Part shown: positions 15,001 through 21,000 of the stretch, in pieces | Position numbering within the stretch: the first letter of the stretch is position 1 | Layout of the letters: each line of letters starts with the position of its first letter | NCBI RefSeq assembly: GCF_050320075.1 | Contig: NZ_CP190018.1 | Direction: 5' to 3' (one strand) | DNA: 64,000 bases | DNA from: Escherichia coli | GTDB lineage: Bacteria > Pseudomonadota > Gammaproteobacteria > Enterobacterales > Enterobacteriaceae | Program-made: the position numbers

Positions 15001-18000
15001 ACGCCGTTTAAAATTCATGGCGTTAACTACTCCATCAGCTCCGCGTGTGCGACTTCCGCACACTGTATCGGTAACGCAGTAGAGCAGATCCAACTGGGCA
15101 AACAGGACATCGTGTTTGCTGGTGGCGGCGAAGAGCTGTGCTGGGAAATGGCTTGCGAATTCGACGCGATGGGTGCGCTGTCTACCAAATACAACGACAC
15201 CCCGGAAAAAGCCTCCCGTACTTACGACGCTCACCGTGACGGTTTCGTTATCGCAGGCGGCGGCGGTATGGTAGTGGTTGAAGAGCTGGAACACGCGCTG
15301 GCGCGTGGTGCTCACATCTATGCTGAAATCGTTGGCTACGGCGCAACGTCTGATGGCGCAGACATGGTTGCTCCGTCTGGCGAAGGCGCAGTGCGTTGCA
15401 TGAAGATGGCGATGCACGGTGTTGATACCCCAATCGACTACCTGAACTCCCACGGTACTTCGACTCCGGTTGGCGACGTGAAAGAGCTGGCGGCTATCCG
15501 TGAAGTGTTCGGCGATAAGAGCCCGGCGATTTCTGCAACCAAAGCAATGACCGGTCACTCTCTGGGCGCTGCTGGCGTACAGGAAGCTATCTACTCTCTG
15601 CTGATGCTGGAACACGGCTTTATCGCCCCGAGCATCAACATTGAAGAGCTGGACGAACAGGCTGCGGGTCTGAACATCGTGACCGAAACGACCGATCGCG
15701 AACTGACCACCGTTATGTCTAACAGCTTCGGCTTCGGCGGCACCAACGCCACGCTGGTAATGCGCAAGCTGAAAGATTAATTTGGAGTAGGTCGGATAAG
15801 ACGCGTCAGCGTCGCATCCGACATTACGCGCCAATGCGGCCTCCGGCACTAACGCCAAAGGGAACCCGATGGTTCCCTTTTTCACATCATTGACAATCGC
15901 CGCCTGTTCCAGGCAAACTTCCCGCTTTGTCGATTTCCTTCTGAAAAGACGTGCGCGTTAAATCCTGCCAACGCACCGTAACCCTGAAACCAGAGAGATG
16001 AGACGGGGAAATTCCTCGCCTTGCGCTGCATTCTGGAGTAATGCATGACTGCTGTAAGCCAAACCGAAACACGATCTTCTGCCAATTTTTCGCTCTTCCG
16101 CATCGCTTTTGCGGTTTTTCTCACCTACATGACCGTAGGGCTGCCGTTGCCGGTTATCCCGCTGTTTGTTCATCATGAACTGGGCTATGGCAACACCATG
16201 GTCGGTATTGCCGTCGGCATTCAGTTTCTGGCTACGGTGCTGACGCGTGGTTACGCCGGGCGACTGGCCGATCAATATGGCGCAAAACGTTCGGCGCTTC
16301 AGGGGATGTTAGCTTGTGGTCTGGCTGGCGGCGCGCTGCTGTTGGCGGCGATTTTGCCCGTCTCCGCACCGTTCAAATTTGTCCTGTTGGTCGTCGGGCG
16401 TTTGATTCTTGGCTTTGGTGAAAGCCAGTTACTGACGGGCGCTCTGACCTGGGGATTAGGCATCGTTGGGCCAAAACATTCCGGCAAAGTGATGTCATGG
16501 AACGGAATGGCGATTTACGGTGCCCTCGCTGTTGGTGCGCCGCTTGGCCTGTTGATTCATAGCCATTACGGTTTTGCCGCACTGGCGCTCACCACAATGG
16601 CATTACCCTTACTGGCGTGGGCCTGTAACGGCACAGTGCGCAAAGTACCGGCCCTGGCGGGAGAACGTCCATCGCTGTGGAGCGTTGTCGGGCTTATCTG
16701 GAAACCAGGGTTAGGTCTGGCACTACAAGGCGTTGGTTTTGCGGTTATCGGGACTTTCGTTTCGCTCTACTTTGCCAGCAAAGGATGGGCAATGGCGGGC
16801 TTTACTCTTACCGCGTTTGGCGGTGCATTTGTCGTGATGCGCGTCATGTTTGGCTGGATGCCGGACCGTTTTGGCGGCGTGAAAGTGGCGATTGTCTCTC
16901 TGCTTGTAGAAACGGTGGGCTTGTTGCTGCTCTGGCAAGCCCCAGGTGCGTGGGTCGCATTAGCGGGCGCGGCGTTAACCGGAGCCGGATGTTCGCTTAT
17001 CTTTCCTGCGCTGGGCGTGGAGGTGGTTAAACGCGTCCCCTCACAAGTTCGCGGCACCGCACTGGGCGGTTACGCCGCGTTTCAGGATATCGCCCTCGGC
17101 GTCTCCGGGCCGCTTGCGGGAATGCTGGCGACCACGTTTGGTTACTCTTCGGTATTTCTTGCCGGGGCGATCTCTGCGGTGCTGGGAATTATTGTCACGA
17201 TACTGTCGTTTCGTCGGGGTTAACAAACCAGCCAGACCAGCATCAGGATAATCGCGACTAACAGTATCCACAGCGCGGGACGCGTTGCCATATTTTGCAA
17301 CGTGTCCATCATCGGTGGAAAAGGATTAAGCAGCGGTTGTATATCTCGCGGATCAATCCCTTTAACCCGCCGTTGATAAAGCTGATTAAGAATATCCTCG
17401 GCCTGGGCAGAAGAAAGCGATGATTGCGCAGAAAGGCCATATTTTTGCTGGATATATGCCGATAACGCCGCCAGTTCACTGGCATCTAAAGGTTGTTTTA
17501 GCGCCATCTGGAGTGATTCAAGCGTCGGCGTATTTTGCTGGCTTAGCGTCTGACGCGCCTGCAGCCAGGTCACCAGATGGTTAAACAGTTTCGCTGGAAT
17601 TAACTCGCCATCTTTCACCCCGGAAAGTTCCAGCATCGATTGCCAGATCTGCTTGCTGGGTTCTCCCGTTGCCGCCGCAAGTTTGGTCACCAGCTGTTTG
17701 AGCGCATTGTGCTCCGCCGGTAATAACGGACGATCTGTCGCCTCGCGCTGCTGCGGTTGCGGAATAACCATCTTCCCTTCCTGCAACAGGGTTAGAATGG
17801 TTTTTAATTGCTCCGGTGAGAGCTGATTCAGCGGCGTCTGACCAAAGTTATGACGGATATAATCCGTGACCGCCTGACGATTATTCCCCAGACGTAGATA
17901 CTCCCCTAATTGCGCTAAAAGCTGGCGGGCAGAATGGCTTTTTTGCGCGGCCAGCAGACGTTGCGCCAGATTATGCTCAGCGGCAGGAAAGTGACGCGAA

Positions 18001-21000
18001 AGCAGCGGTGAATCTCCCGACAGACCAATATCGTGCCTGATACCCGCCCACAGTTCTGCTCTTTGCTGTTGCGTCAGTGAGGTCACTTTCGTCATTAAGC
18101 TTTCCAGCGAAGTACGTTGCTGACTGGATAAAGGCTGATTGCCCGCGCCAGACGGCAGGTTATCTCCCTGACCTGGTGGTTGCCCAGGAGGAGGGCCGGA
18201 AATAGGTTGTATCATTACGTATCCTTATACCTGAAATCTTCGCAAGTATGCCTGGCCGCGAGATTATGGCACACTTGTCCGGTTAACTCTCGTCTCATAC
18301 AGGTAACACAAACGTGAAAATCCTTGTTGATGAAAATATGCCTTATGCCCGCGACTTATTTAGCCGTTTGGGCGAGGTGACCGCGATTCCCGGGCGTCCA
18401 ATCCCCGTGGCTCAACTGGCAGACGCGGATGCGCTGATGGTGCGTTCGGTCACGAAAGTGAATGAATCTTTGCTGGCAGGAAAACCCATTAAATTTGTTG
18501 GCACTGCCACCGCGGGGACCGACCATGTCGATGAAGCGTGGTTAAAGCAGGCGGGAATTGGTTTTTCCGCGGCACCAGGCTGTAATGCGATTGCGGTGGT
18601 GGAATATGTTTTCTCCTCACTGCTGATGCTTGCCGAACGCGATGGATTTTCACTGCACGACCGTACAGTGGGGATCGTGGGCGTTGGTAACGTTGGTCGC
18701 CGTTTACAGGCGCGACTGGAAGCGTTAGGGATTACAACCTTGCTTTGCGATCCGCCTCGCGCCGACCGTGGGGATGAGGGGGATTTCCGCTCGCTGGATG
18801 AATTAGTTCAGCATGCGGATATTCTGACTTTCCATACGCCACTCTTTAAAGATGGTCCGTACAAAACGCTGCATCTGGCGGATGAAAAACTGATCCGTAG
18901 CCTGAAACCAGGAGCGATTCTGATTAACGCCTGCCGTGGCGCAGTCGTCGATAATACTGCCCTATTGACCTGTCTGAACGAAGGCCAGAAGTTAAGCGTA
19001 GTGCTGGATGTCTGGGAAGGCGAACCGGAACTCAACGTGGAATTGCTGAAAAAAGTGGATATCGGCACGCCGCATATCGCAGGCTATACCCTGGAAGGTA
19101 AAGCACGCGGTACTACGCAAGTGTTTGAAGCCTATAGCAAGTTTATTGGGCATGAACAGCATGTTGCGCTGGATACGTTGCTGCCCGCGCCAGAGTTTGG
19201 CCGCATTACGCTGCATGGTCCGCTCGATCAACCGACGCTGAAAAGGCTGGTGCATTTGGTGTATGATGTGCGCCGCGATGACGCACCGCTGCGTAAAGTC
19301 GCCGGAATACCGGGTGAGTTCGATAAGCTGCGCAAAAACTATCTTGAGCGCCGTGAATGGTCATCTCTGTATGTGATTTGTGATGACGCCAGCGCGGCAT
19401 CATTGCTGTGTAAACTGGGTTTTAACGCCGTTCATCATCCGGCACGTTAATCTCTTCTTCATGCTCTCTGCTGTAATATTGGCAGGGAGCTTTGCTATTT
19501 CTGGAGTAAACCACCATGTCTGAAGGCTGGAACATTGCCGTCCTGGGCGCAACTGGCGCTGTGGGCGAAGCCCTGCTTGAAACGCTGGCTGAACGTCAGT
19601 TCCCGGTTGGGGAAATTTATGCACTGGCACGTAACGAAAGCGCAGGCGAACAACTGCGCTTTGGTGGTAAGACAATCACCGTGCAGGATGCCGCTGAATT
19701 CGACTGGACGCAGGCGCAGCTGGCGTTTTTTGTCGCAGGCAAAGAAGCTACCGCTGCCTGGGTTGAAGAAGCGACCAACTCAGGTTGCCTGGTGATCGAT
19801 AGCAGCGGATTGTTTGCTCTCGAACCTGACGTACCGCTGGTGGTGCCGGAAGTAAACCCGTTTGTACTGACCGATTACCGCAACCGGAATGTCATCGCCG
19901 TACCGGACAGTCTGACCAGCCAACTGCTGGCGGCACTGAAACCGTTAATCGATCAGGGCGGTTTGTCGCGTATCAGCGTTACCAGCCTGATTTCAGCCTC
20001 CGCCCAGGGCAAAAAAGCGGTCGATGCGTTAGCGGGGCAGAGTGCGAAATTGCTCAACGGCATTCCGATTGATGAAGAAGATTTCTTCGGGCGTCAGCTG
20101 GCGTTCAACATGCTGCCGTTACTGCCGGATAGCGAAGGTAGCGTGCGTGAAGAACGTCGTATCGTTGACGAAGTACGAAAAATCCTGCAGGACGAAGGGC
20201 TGATGATTTCGGCAAGCGTCGTCCAGGCACCGGTATTCTACGGTCATGCCCAGATGGTCAACTTTGAAGCACTGCGTCCGCTGGCAGCAGAAGAAGCGCG
20301 TGATGCGTTTGCTCAGGGCGAAGATATTGTGCTCTCTGAAGAGAACGAATTCCCGACTCAGGTGGGGGATGCTTCTGGTACGCCGCATCTTTCCGTTGGC
20401 TGCGTACGTAATGACTACGGTATGCCGGAGCAAGTTCAGTTCTGGTCGGTGGCCGATAACGTTCGCTTTGGCGGCGCGCTGATGGCAGTAAAAATCGCCG
20501 AGAAACTGGTGCAGGAGTATCTGTACTAATGTCCGACCAGCAACAACCGCCAGTTTATAAAATTGCGCTGGGCATTGAGTACGACGGCAGTAAGTATTAC
20601 GGCTGGCAACGGCAGAACGAAGTCCGCAGTGTGCAGGAGAAGCTGGAAAAGGCGCTCTCCCAGGTGGCGAACGAACCCATCACCGTCTTCTGCGCCGGGC
20701 GTACTGACGCAGGTGTACACGGCACCGGGCAGGTTGTGCATTTCGAAACGACCGCGCAGCGCAAAGACGCTGCGTGGACGTTGGGCGTAAATGCGAATTT
20801 ACCTGGTGACATCGCCGTGCGTTGGGTTAAAGCTGTACCTGATGATTTTCATGCCCGATTTAGCGCCACGGCTCGCCGTTATCGCTACATCATCTACAAT
20901 CATCGGCTGCGCCCGGCGGTACTGAGTAAAGGGGTAACCCATTTTTACGAACCGCTGGACGCTGAACGGATGCATCGGGCCGCGCAATGCTTGCTGGGCG

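Follow-up and report, generated by a model that had tools for sequence, protein, structure and literature searches.

The flk locus and its neighbours

The DNA analysed here (the window) is a stretch of 64,000 nucleotides of the Escherichia coli contig NZ_CP190018.1, and all positions given below refer to it. The minus strand of the window carries at 17220..18215 an open reading frame of 331 amino acids, which starts with ATG, stops with TAA and is preceded by a Shine-Dalgarno-like AAGGA sequence located 7 nt 5' of the start codon. The convergent gene yfcJ (16045..17223, plus strand) codes for an MFS transporter (Pfam MFS_1, E 1e-35; NCBIfam PRK12382, 702 bits; RefSeq). On the other side, pdxB starts 98 bp upstream of the reading frame on the opposite strand and is thus divergently oriented.

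The original prediction took the reading frame for flk, and translation, profile and annotation agree in assigning it to E. coli flk (also known as div, RflH or Fluke), the orthologue of Salmonella Flk. The product reaches 507.4 bits against the NCBIfam Flk equivalog NF007987 (cut-off 353), where residues 2-330 correspond to positions 1-338 of the 339-position profile, and the 100%-identical DNA found in complete E. coli genomes is annotated by RefSeq as flk between yfcJ and pdxB. The Pfam family PF27202 (Flk_N) is present on database proteins near-identical to the one studied here. A comparison with Salmonella Flk, which had been proposed as a check, yields similarity over the full length: residues 1-331 align with residues 1-334 of an open reading frame of Salmonella enterica subsp. 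arizonae at 61% identity and 78% positives (E 5e-150).

Using positions 16900-18400 (1501 nt) as a query, with at least 80% coverage taken as presence, the flk region turns up in 5421 of the 5426 complete genomes of E. coli, and the Flk protein family is conserved across Enterobacterales. Given this conservation, the reading frame is not a product of chance. The family is narrow: a search of 1.84 billion proteins gives 141 representatives at E <= 0.001. A cluster look-up places one of ten distant relatives in Affinibrenneria salicis. Flk showed no domain of another known function, and no solved structure related to Flk by sequence was found (best E-value 0.2).

Some matches were set aside. Flk matches the phage family phrog_5825 with an E-value of 7e-27, yet the only phage-collection matches covering most of Flk are two copies of a single record, “Escherichia phage 500465-2”. 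This record, a predicted P2-like prophage, extends into the chromosomal genes flk-yfcJ-fabB-mnmC, and the match was therefore rejected as chromosomal carry-over rather than a phage relative of Flk; phrog_5825 itself probably derives from carry-over of this kind. For three long proteins (P0220, P0222 and P0225), the many stretches that match Flk are probably due to chance similarity in repetitive, Q/L-rich sequence, and a Pfam Gluconate_2-dh3 match to Flk falls below threshold.

The intergenic region between flk and pdxB (18216..18313) spans 98 bp and is the place of divergent promoters. In Salmonella, the promoters of flk and pdxB are divergent and overlap each other (Karlinsey 1997, as cited in PMC8546590). 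A simple consensus scan of 18216..18313 finds no sigma-70 promoter site; consensus scans for promoters and terminators return counts not above those in shuffled sequence. The divergent arrangement with pdxB recurs in the majority of the 80 related loci that were listed, and it is also seen for a 490-aa relative that is 26% identical to Flk.

The convergent overlap with yfcJ

The stop region of flk had been described as overlapping that of the convergent yfcJ by 4 nt, and the coding sequences do exactly so: the TAA of yfcJ occupies 17221-17223 on the plus strand and the TAA of flk occupies 17220-17222 on the minus strand, which leaves TTAA (17220..17223) as the overlap of the coding sequences and 2 nt (TA) common to both stops. 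The RefSeq annotation of identical DNA contains the same 4-nt overlap, and Salmonella flk has the same neighbours, with pdxB divergent and yfcJ convergent with an identical 4-nt overlap. Among the 80 related loci, the overlap is found in 29, as TTAA, CTAA, TTAG or CTAG; the remainder have a gap of 18-93 bp (21 loci), inserted genes (15) or no yfcJ in the flank (15). The majority of the related genera thus lack it.

Such an arrangement could be a regulatory device, if the 3' ends of the flk and yfcJ transcripts overlapped and tuned expression by antisense pairing or transcriptional interference. The exact 4-nt arrangement is kept in Escherichia, Citrobacter, Salmonella enterica subsp. arizonae and diarizonae, Yokenella and Intestinirhabdus, and it survives the turnover of both stop codons that yields the four tetranucleotides. 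Moreover, no terminator-like site for flk was found within 150 nt inside yfcJ, and the first hairpins of the yfcJ-sense RNA form 48-84 nt past the yfcJ stop, inside flk, which makes some 3' transcript overlap likely. An 11-bp hairpin in this RNA (17278..17307, plus strand), 55 nt beyond the yfcJ stop and within codons 303-313 of flk, is a possible, albeit uncertain, candidate for the 3'-end structure of the yfcJ transcript. In E. coli, the 110-nt region around it is marginally more stable than shuffled sequence (z = -1.98, with 9 of 200 shuffles folding equally well), and the homologous regions of Salmonella arizonae (z -2.9) and Citrobacter youngae (z -5.8) fold more strongly.

A dedicated regulatory role nevertheless appears very unlikely. 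Flk is conserved in Enterobacter, Lelliottia, Leclercia and others that have the 18-93 bp spacer in place of the overlap, in Kosakonia and Phytobacter, where the inserted genes separate flk from yfcJ, and in the 15 loci in which yfcJ was not found in the flank. The marginal stability of the E. coli hairpin and a number of terminator-like sites equal to chance expectation also argue against it, and an MFS transporter and Flk are not known to be linked in function. The overlap may persist simply because a change to the TA common to both genes would abolish the two stop codons at once. Since other related loci have a spacer, inserted genes or no yfcJ in its place, the overlap can be regarded from these comparisons as a lineage trait that is dispensable for Flk, and most probably as inherited gene packing without a dedicated regulatory role, of a kind that is routine in one enterobacterial lineage.

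The predicted disordered N-terminus

Flk starts with the sequence MIQPISGPPPGQPPGQGDN. Codons 1-27 (18135..18215, minus strand) comprise a conserved MQP..G start followed by a low-complexity stretch rich in Pro, Gly and Gln (PPPGQPPGQ). The stretch had been noticed beforehand; it is evident in the translation and predicted to be disordered, with pLDDT values below 50 at residues 1-3 and 12-21 of the AF2 model. In the family alignment the MQPxxG motif is conserved, and the segment that follows varies in length and sequence; in E. albertii Flk it is 4 aa shorter. At the DNA level, Tandem Repeats Finder reports no repeat in flk, the PPPGQPPGQ region included.

The overall composition of Flk is 16.3% L, 11.5% Q, 9.1% A and 7.9% P. 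The description of the protein as Gln/Pro-rich is therefore apt with regard to Gln, and with regard to Pro chiefly fits the N-terminus and the linkers.

A cytoplasmic region built from two copies

Downstream of the N-terminus, a long helical body rich in Q, L and A had been proposed. The AF2 model of Flk is indeed helical, with 13 helices, but instead of a single long helix it contains two compact domains at residues about 28-150 and 163-287. The first domain (codons 28-150; 17766..18134, minus strand) includes helices at residues 31-48, 52-63, 73-107, 112-124 and 134-146, and the second (codons 163-287; 17355..17729, minus strand) helices at 166-183, 187-198, 208-226, 232-238, 245-259 and 269-285. 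Helices 1 and 2 have equal lengths in both domains and are offset by exactly 135 residues. A comparison of the two halves with hhalign gives a probability of 99.2% (E 2.9e-19), against 0.4% for a reversed control. Neither self-BLAST nor a hand-written motif regex picked up internal repeats in Flk, and the duplication is visible solely by profile-profile comparison. Models and alignment give good support to the conclusion that a five-helix unit of about 130 amino acids occurs twice in tandem in the cytoplasmic part of Flk, as the result of an internal duplication. We found no description of this duplication in the accessible Flk literature. In some Flk lineages, an additional copy of the second sub-module is present.

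The Flk domains resemble the three-helix-bundle protein-binding domains of phage recombination proteins (the C-terminal domain of Red beta, NinB, and the 80-alpha Sak / SaPI2 Stl complex, entry 8qe9). Identity to these domains and to the Mu GemA family (PF06252) amounts to only 10-17%. Sub-threshold GemA matches occur in 13 of 36 Flk family members at E <= 0.01 (best E 8.7e-5), yet the protein studied here scores 21.4 bits, below the Pfam cut-off of 27, and is not classed as a GemA member. We treat the likeness to GemA and to the phage domains as a common small fold rather than as membership.

The C-terminal tail anchor

A flexible juxtamembrane linker (codons 288-312; 17280..17354, minus strand), with pLDDT below 50 at residues 290-298, leads to the basic residue R312, which directly precedes the transmembrane segment and is invariant in an alignment of close Flk relatives. 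In most of the more distant members, the segment is immediately preceded by P, which itself follows an R or K. Compared with E. coli Flk, the Salmonella enterica protein (RflH, “Fluke”; 333 aa) shares the length class and the C-terminal hydrophobic anchor, and differs in the N-terminal low-complexity stretch and in this linker, where the sequences diverge and the lengths are a few residues apart.

The segment itself (codons 313-331; 17223..17279, minus strand) reads PALWILLVAIILMLVWLVC and extends up to the final residue of the protein, with nothing after it. It has a mean Kyte-Doolittle hydropathy of 2.82 and a predicted helix at residues 313-330. Windows of 19 residues with a mean above 1.6 are found only within residues 308-331, and the best 19-residue window ending before residue 300 reaches 0.62. 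Neither an N-terminal signal sequence nor another hydrophobic segment is detected in Flk, the N-terminus of which is polar and disordered. The position is conserved in the family: in nearly all full-length representatives of the 50% clusters 0-2 residues separate the C-terminus from the end of the 17-mer of highest hydrophobicity. The hydropathy analysis thus bears out the predicted tail-anchored topology, with one hydrophobic segment at the extreme C-terminus and none elsewhere. A single C-terminal transmembrane domain (TMD), a negligible tail and R312 as the N-in positive charge are the features by which Flk qualifies as tail-anchored.

This topology is consistent with published experiments. 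E. coli Flk has been described as a bona fide tail-anchored protein of the membrane, for whose TMD a GRAVY of 2.83 is given (PMC6794478), and its TMD is both necessary and enough to target the protein to the membrane (Peschke et al. 2018, as cited in PMC6794478). Flk is held in the membrane by its last 18 residues and cannot function without them (PMC8546590), and a pHluorin-Flk fusion is found at the membrane (PMC5142619). Insertion of E. coli Flk depends on SRP, FtsY, YidC and DnaK, and compromising SecYEG has a minor effect (PMC6794478). Flk would accordingly sit in the inner membrane with about 310 residues in the cytoplasm, its last 19 residues forming a very hydrophobic helix and nothing being exposed beyond. 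Insertion would be post-translational, since the anchor does not emerge from the ribosome before termination.

Two other tail-anchored proteins of the E. coli inner membrane, DjlC and SciP/TssL, likewise combine a single C-terminal TMD with a cytoplasmic bulk, and share with Flk post-translational insertion and little dependence on SecYEG (PMC6794478). Their functions are unrelated to that of Flk, and Flk has a TMD of much greater hydrophobicity (GRAVY 2.83), which also relies on SRP more strongly than the TMD of DjlC does (PMC6794478).

Probable role in the flagellar secretion switch

We consider it very probable that the Flk protein encoded here is a tail-anchored inner-membrane protein which keeps the flagellar export gate in its early mode. 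The anchor function, the insertion pathway, the secretion-switch role and the FlhA-C interaction are taken from the Salmonella and E. coli literature; the work on the secretion switch was done in Salmonella, and that on E. coli concerns membrane insertion only. By analogy, this flk allele would play the same role as its Salmonella counterpart. From its position at the membrane, the cytoplasmic part of Flk would act on the flagellar type III export gate and keep it in the mode for early (rod/hook) substrates, such that no premature switch to late building blocks takes place. This protection would be most needed while the rod awaits the P and L rings. In Salmonella, P/L-ring mutants that lose flk secrete FlgM and express class 3 genes (PMC13344023). 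Single flk deletions have near-wild-type motility (PMC13344023), and the phenotype is therefore conditional.

FlhB's C-terminal domain (FlhB-CCD) similarly is inhibitory and retains the export gate in early mode for as long as the hook-basal body is unfinished (PMC13344023). It is no member of the Flk family, and unlike Flk it is a part of the core export apparatus that is produced by autocleavage and removed by FliK. The parallel phenotypes of the two factors, together with suppressors selected in flk-null backgrounds that map to FlhB-CCD (PMC13344023), are in line with the idea of a “double-locked gate” (Kutsukake 1997, as cited in PMC8546590), according to which Flk acts mainly via FlhB as a second lock on its C-terminal domain. 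However, either Flk or FlhB-CCD alone is enough to block late secretion, and Flk still does so if FlhB-CCD is deleted, also in the absence of FliK (PMC13344023). Furthermore, a bacterial two-hybrid (BACTH) assay detects an interaction between Flk and FlhA-C (PMC13344023). An action mainly through FlhB is therefore unlikely. Genetic and two-hybrid data rather point to FlhA-C as the putative target, independent of the cleaved FlhB C-terminal domain. For a binding partner of Flk, the evidence consists of two-hybrid and genetic data only, and the authors themselves call for further characterisation of the Fluke-FlhA interaction (PMC13344023).

A main role of E. coli flk outside the flagellum, in which Flk would be a general helical scaffold tethered to the membrane and affect flagella only incidentally, is hardly credible. 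The gene lies outside the flagellar gene clusters, adjoins pdxB and occurs in essentially all complete E. coli genomes, and a single flk mutant swims normally (PMC13344023), all of which would be in line with such a role. Yet the reported flk phenotypes and the suppressor genetics are all flagellar (PMC13344023, PMC8546590), and a narrow protein family in which no domain of another known function is detected speaks against a general scaffold as well.

Taking Flk as a membrane-bound keeper of the early mode, its duplicated cytoplasmic region allows a tentative proposal, which we hold to be rather improbable in its full form: Flk might be a membrane-tethered, pseudo-dimeric clamp, the two halves of which engage two equivalent sites of the export gate and hold it closed in early mode. 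Adjacent FlhA-C subunits of the nonameric ring could provide such sites, but the clamp mechanism and its targets are speculation.

The identity, tail-anchored topology and function of Flk are already known and ordinary, and in this respect the finding matters little. The two-copy architecture is one potentially useful by-product, as the two halves and the natural variants with an extra module offer a concrete handle on the recently proposed interaction of Flk with FlhA-C.

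Identity and Genomic Setting of flk

The gene flk (positions 17220-18215, minus strand) comprises an ATG start, 331 codons and a TAA stop, and an AAGGA sequence is located 7 nt 5' of the ATG. The encoded protein starts with MIQPISGPPPGQPPGQGDN and contains 16.3% Leu, 11.5% Gln, 9.1% Ala and 7.9% Pro. Its identity as Flk, as put forward in the original prediction, is borne out by the NCBIfam equivalog model (507 bits vs a cut-off of 353), by the same-position ORF of Salmonella enterica subsp. arizonae, with 61% identity and 78% similarity along the entire protein, and by the annotation of identical DNA. 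Several complete E. coli chromosomes carry, at 100% identity, a 1501-bp region spanning the gene, with the annotation yfcJ / flk / pdxB, and at least 80% of this region is found in 5421 of the 5426 complete E. coli genomes. Database proteins near-identical to the window protein carry the Pfam domain PF27202 (Flk_N); a Pfam search with a model set that does not contain PF27202 yielded sub-threshold matches only. The neighbours in the window, the MFS transporter YfcJ, PdxB, Usg and TruA, are those expected. All features originally described were found in place, and the prediction is a correct reading of a gene that is already known.

Codons 1-27 (18135-18215) open with an MQPxxG motif that is found throughout the Flk family. 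After it comes a disordered stretch rich in Pro and Gly, which varies in length and sequence across the family and is 4 residues shorter in E. albertii.

In the window as a whole, a single Rfam model reaches its gathering score, the nuoG RNA motif RF01748 (55857-55899, plus strand; 50.3 bits vs 33), which lies just upstream of a 910-aa ORF (55901-58633). The 64,000 nt contain no tRNA genes.

C-Terminal Anchor and Membrane Topology

The sole strongly hydrophobic stretch of Flk consists of the last 19 residues, PALWILLVAIILMLVWLVC, with a Kyte-Doolittle mean of 2.82 vs 0.62 for the best segment ending before residue 300. The terminal position of the anchor is a trait of the Flk family: when clusters at 50% identity are compared, with relatives as distant as about 25%, nearly all full-length representatives have a most hydrophobic 17-mer whose end lies 0-2 residues short of the C-terminus, and R or K followed by P usually stands directly before the anchor. 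In an AlphaFold2 model (mean pLDDT 83), the N-terminus is disordered and is followed by two helical domains, a linker of low confidence (residues 290-298) and a terminal helix (313-330).

The tail-anchored topology proposed for this protein agrees with these data, and published experiments already settle the matter. Flk is held in the cytoplasmic membrane by its 18 hydrophobic C-terminal residues, which its function requires (PMC8546590), and a pHluorin-Flk fusion was found at the membrane (PMC5142619). The E. coli protein qualifies as bona fide tail-anchored, and its transmembrane domain (GRAVY 2.83) is both necessary and sufficient for targeting, a process that needs SRP, FtsY, YidC and DnaK, and SecYEG only slightly (Peschke et al. 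2018, as summarised in PMC6794478).

Internal Duplication of the Cytoplasmic Part

Profile comparison and the predicted structure together indicate that the cytoplasmic part of Flk (codons 28-287, 17355-18134) consists of two tandem copies of a five-helix unit, each about 130 residues long. Sub-alignments from a 36-sequence Flk-family alignment were compared profile to profile with hhalign, and residues 26-158 matched residues 159-295 over 125 columns (probability 99.2%, E 2.9e-19). The same correspondence holds for the constituent modules, 29-93 with 163-224 (98.6%, E 8.8e-16) and 94-150 with 227-285 (91.2%, E 1e-6). A signal of this kind might stem from the Q/L-rich composition, an explanation ruled out by the low scores of the controls: non-cognate module pairs reached at most 2%, and column-reversed profiles 0.3-0.8% (0.4% for the comparison of the two halves). 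The secondary structure of the AlphaFold2 model is consistent with an internal duplication, since the helix pair 31-48 and 52-63 has its counterpart in 166-183 and 187-198, and the isolated bridge residues 28 and 72 have theirs in 163 and 207, all at an offset of exactly 135. In four longer family representatives (426-442 aa; P0143, P0144, P0158 and P0165), the 94-150 module is present twice (blastp E 1e-8 to 1e-11). The available portions of PMC13344023 and its preprint do not mention the duplication, which may already be on record in the earlier Flk literature (1997, 2006) or in the Pfam entry.

The flk-yfcJ Junction

The convergent flk and yfcJ coding sequences overlap by 4 nt, as had been noted: positions 17220-17223 are TTAA on the plus strand, and the TAA stops of yfcJ (17221-17223) and flk (17220-17222, minus strand) have two bases in common. 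A genome-collection scan provided 80 related loci, which fall into four groups. The exact overlap is present in 29, including all Escherichia loci with adjacent yfcJ, most Citrobacter, S. enterica subsp. arizonae and diarizonae, Yokenella and Intestinirhabdus, and all four stop-codon combinations (TTAA, CTAA, TTAG, CTAG) occur in this group. A spacer of 18-93 bp separates the genes in 21 loci (Enterobacter, Lelliottia, Leclercia, Cedecea, Buttiauxella, Pseudocitrobacter), in 15 others (Kosakonia and Phytobacter among them) they lie more than 150 bp apart, in most cases with genes inserted over 1.5-2.3 kb, and in the remaining 15, from various taxa, yfcJ is absent from the flank. The overlap is thus inherited within one clade and dispensable for Flk. 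Of the spacers in loci L029-L039, L070 and L073 (Enterobacter, Lelliottia), several include an inverted repeat of high GC content, such as GCCCGGTGGCG...GCCGCCACCCGGC, which resembles a REP-type element or else a bidirectional terminator.

In the E. coli window, a search reaching 150 nt into yfcJ yielded no terminator-like site for flk, and the first hairpins in yfcJ sense sit inside the flk 3' end, a 7-bp stem (17271-17287) followed by a T-rich tail and an overlapping 11-bp stem (17278-17307). Some overlap of the two transcripts at their 3' ends is therefore likely. The 11-bp hairpin could mark the 3' end of the yfcJ transcript, or arise from the codons used for the conserved RP(G/A) motif. 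At z -1.98, the 110-nt E. coli region is just marginally stabler than its shuffled versions; its counterparts in Citrobacter youngae (z -5.8) and Salmonella arizonae (z -2.9), from the flk loci L021 (4395-4504) and L015 (4392-4501), fold more strongly, with pairings that differ in each. Given the phylogenetic pattern of the overlap, a regulatory role of the putative transcript overlap seems unlikely.

Family Distribution and Role in Flagellar Export

Among 1.84 billion proteins, only 141 cluster representatives match Flk at E <= 0.001. The named relatives are Enterobacterales, a distant one being from Affinibrenneria salicis. A 490-aa relative with 26% identity is still encoded divergently from pdxB-usg-truA, and a 426-aa relative resides at a different locus.

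A strong match of Flk to the phage family PHROG phrog_5825 was rejected as misleading, its source presumably being chromosomal flk in the record NC_049343.1 ("Escherichia phage 500465-2"). In this public record, labelled a complete phage genome (locus L082, 8001-13840), a predicted P2-like prophage runs on into chromosomal flk, yfcJ, fabB and mnmC, which suggests insertion of a prophage on the flank of flk that faces pdxB in the underlying strain.

A Salmonella study (PMC13344023, mBio 2026) reports that flk single mutants swim normally, that a two-hybrid assay shows an interaction of Flk with FlhA-C, the cytoplasmic domain of the export-gate protein FlhA, and that FliK and FlhB's cleaved C-terminal domain (FlhB-CCD) are both dispensable for inhibition by Flk. 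Its authors propose that Flk would stabilise a closed conformation of FlhA-C while the completed rod awaits penetration of the outer membrane; the step from interaction to conformational lock is their model. By analogy with Salmonella, we infer that the E. coli allele described here acts by the same mechanism.
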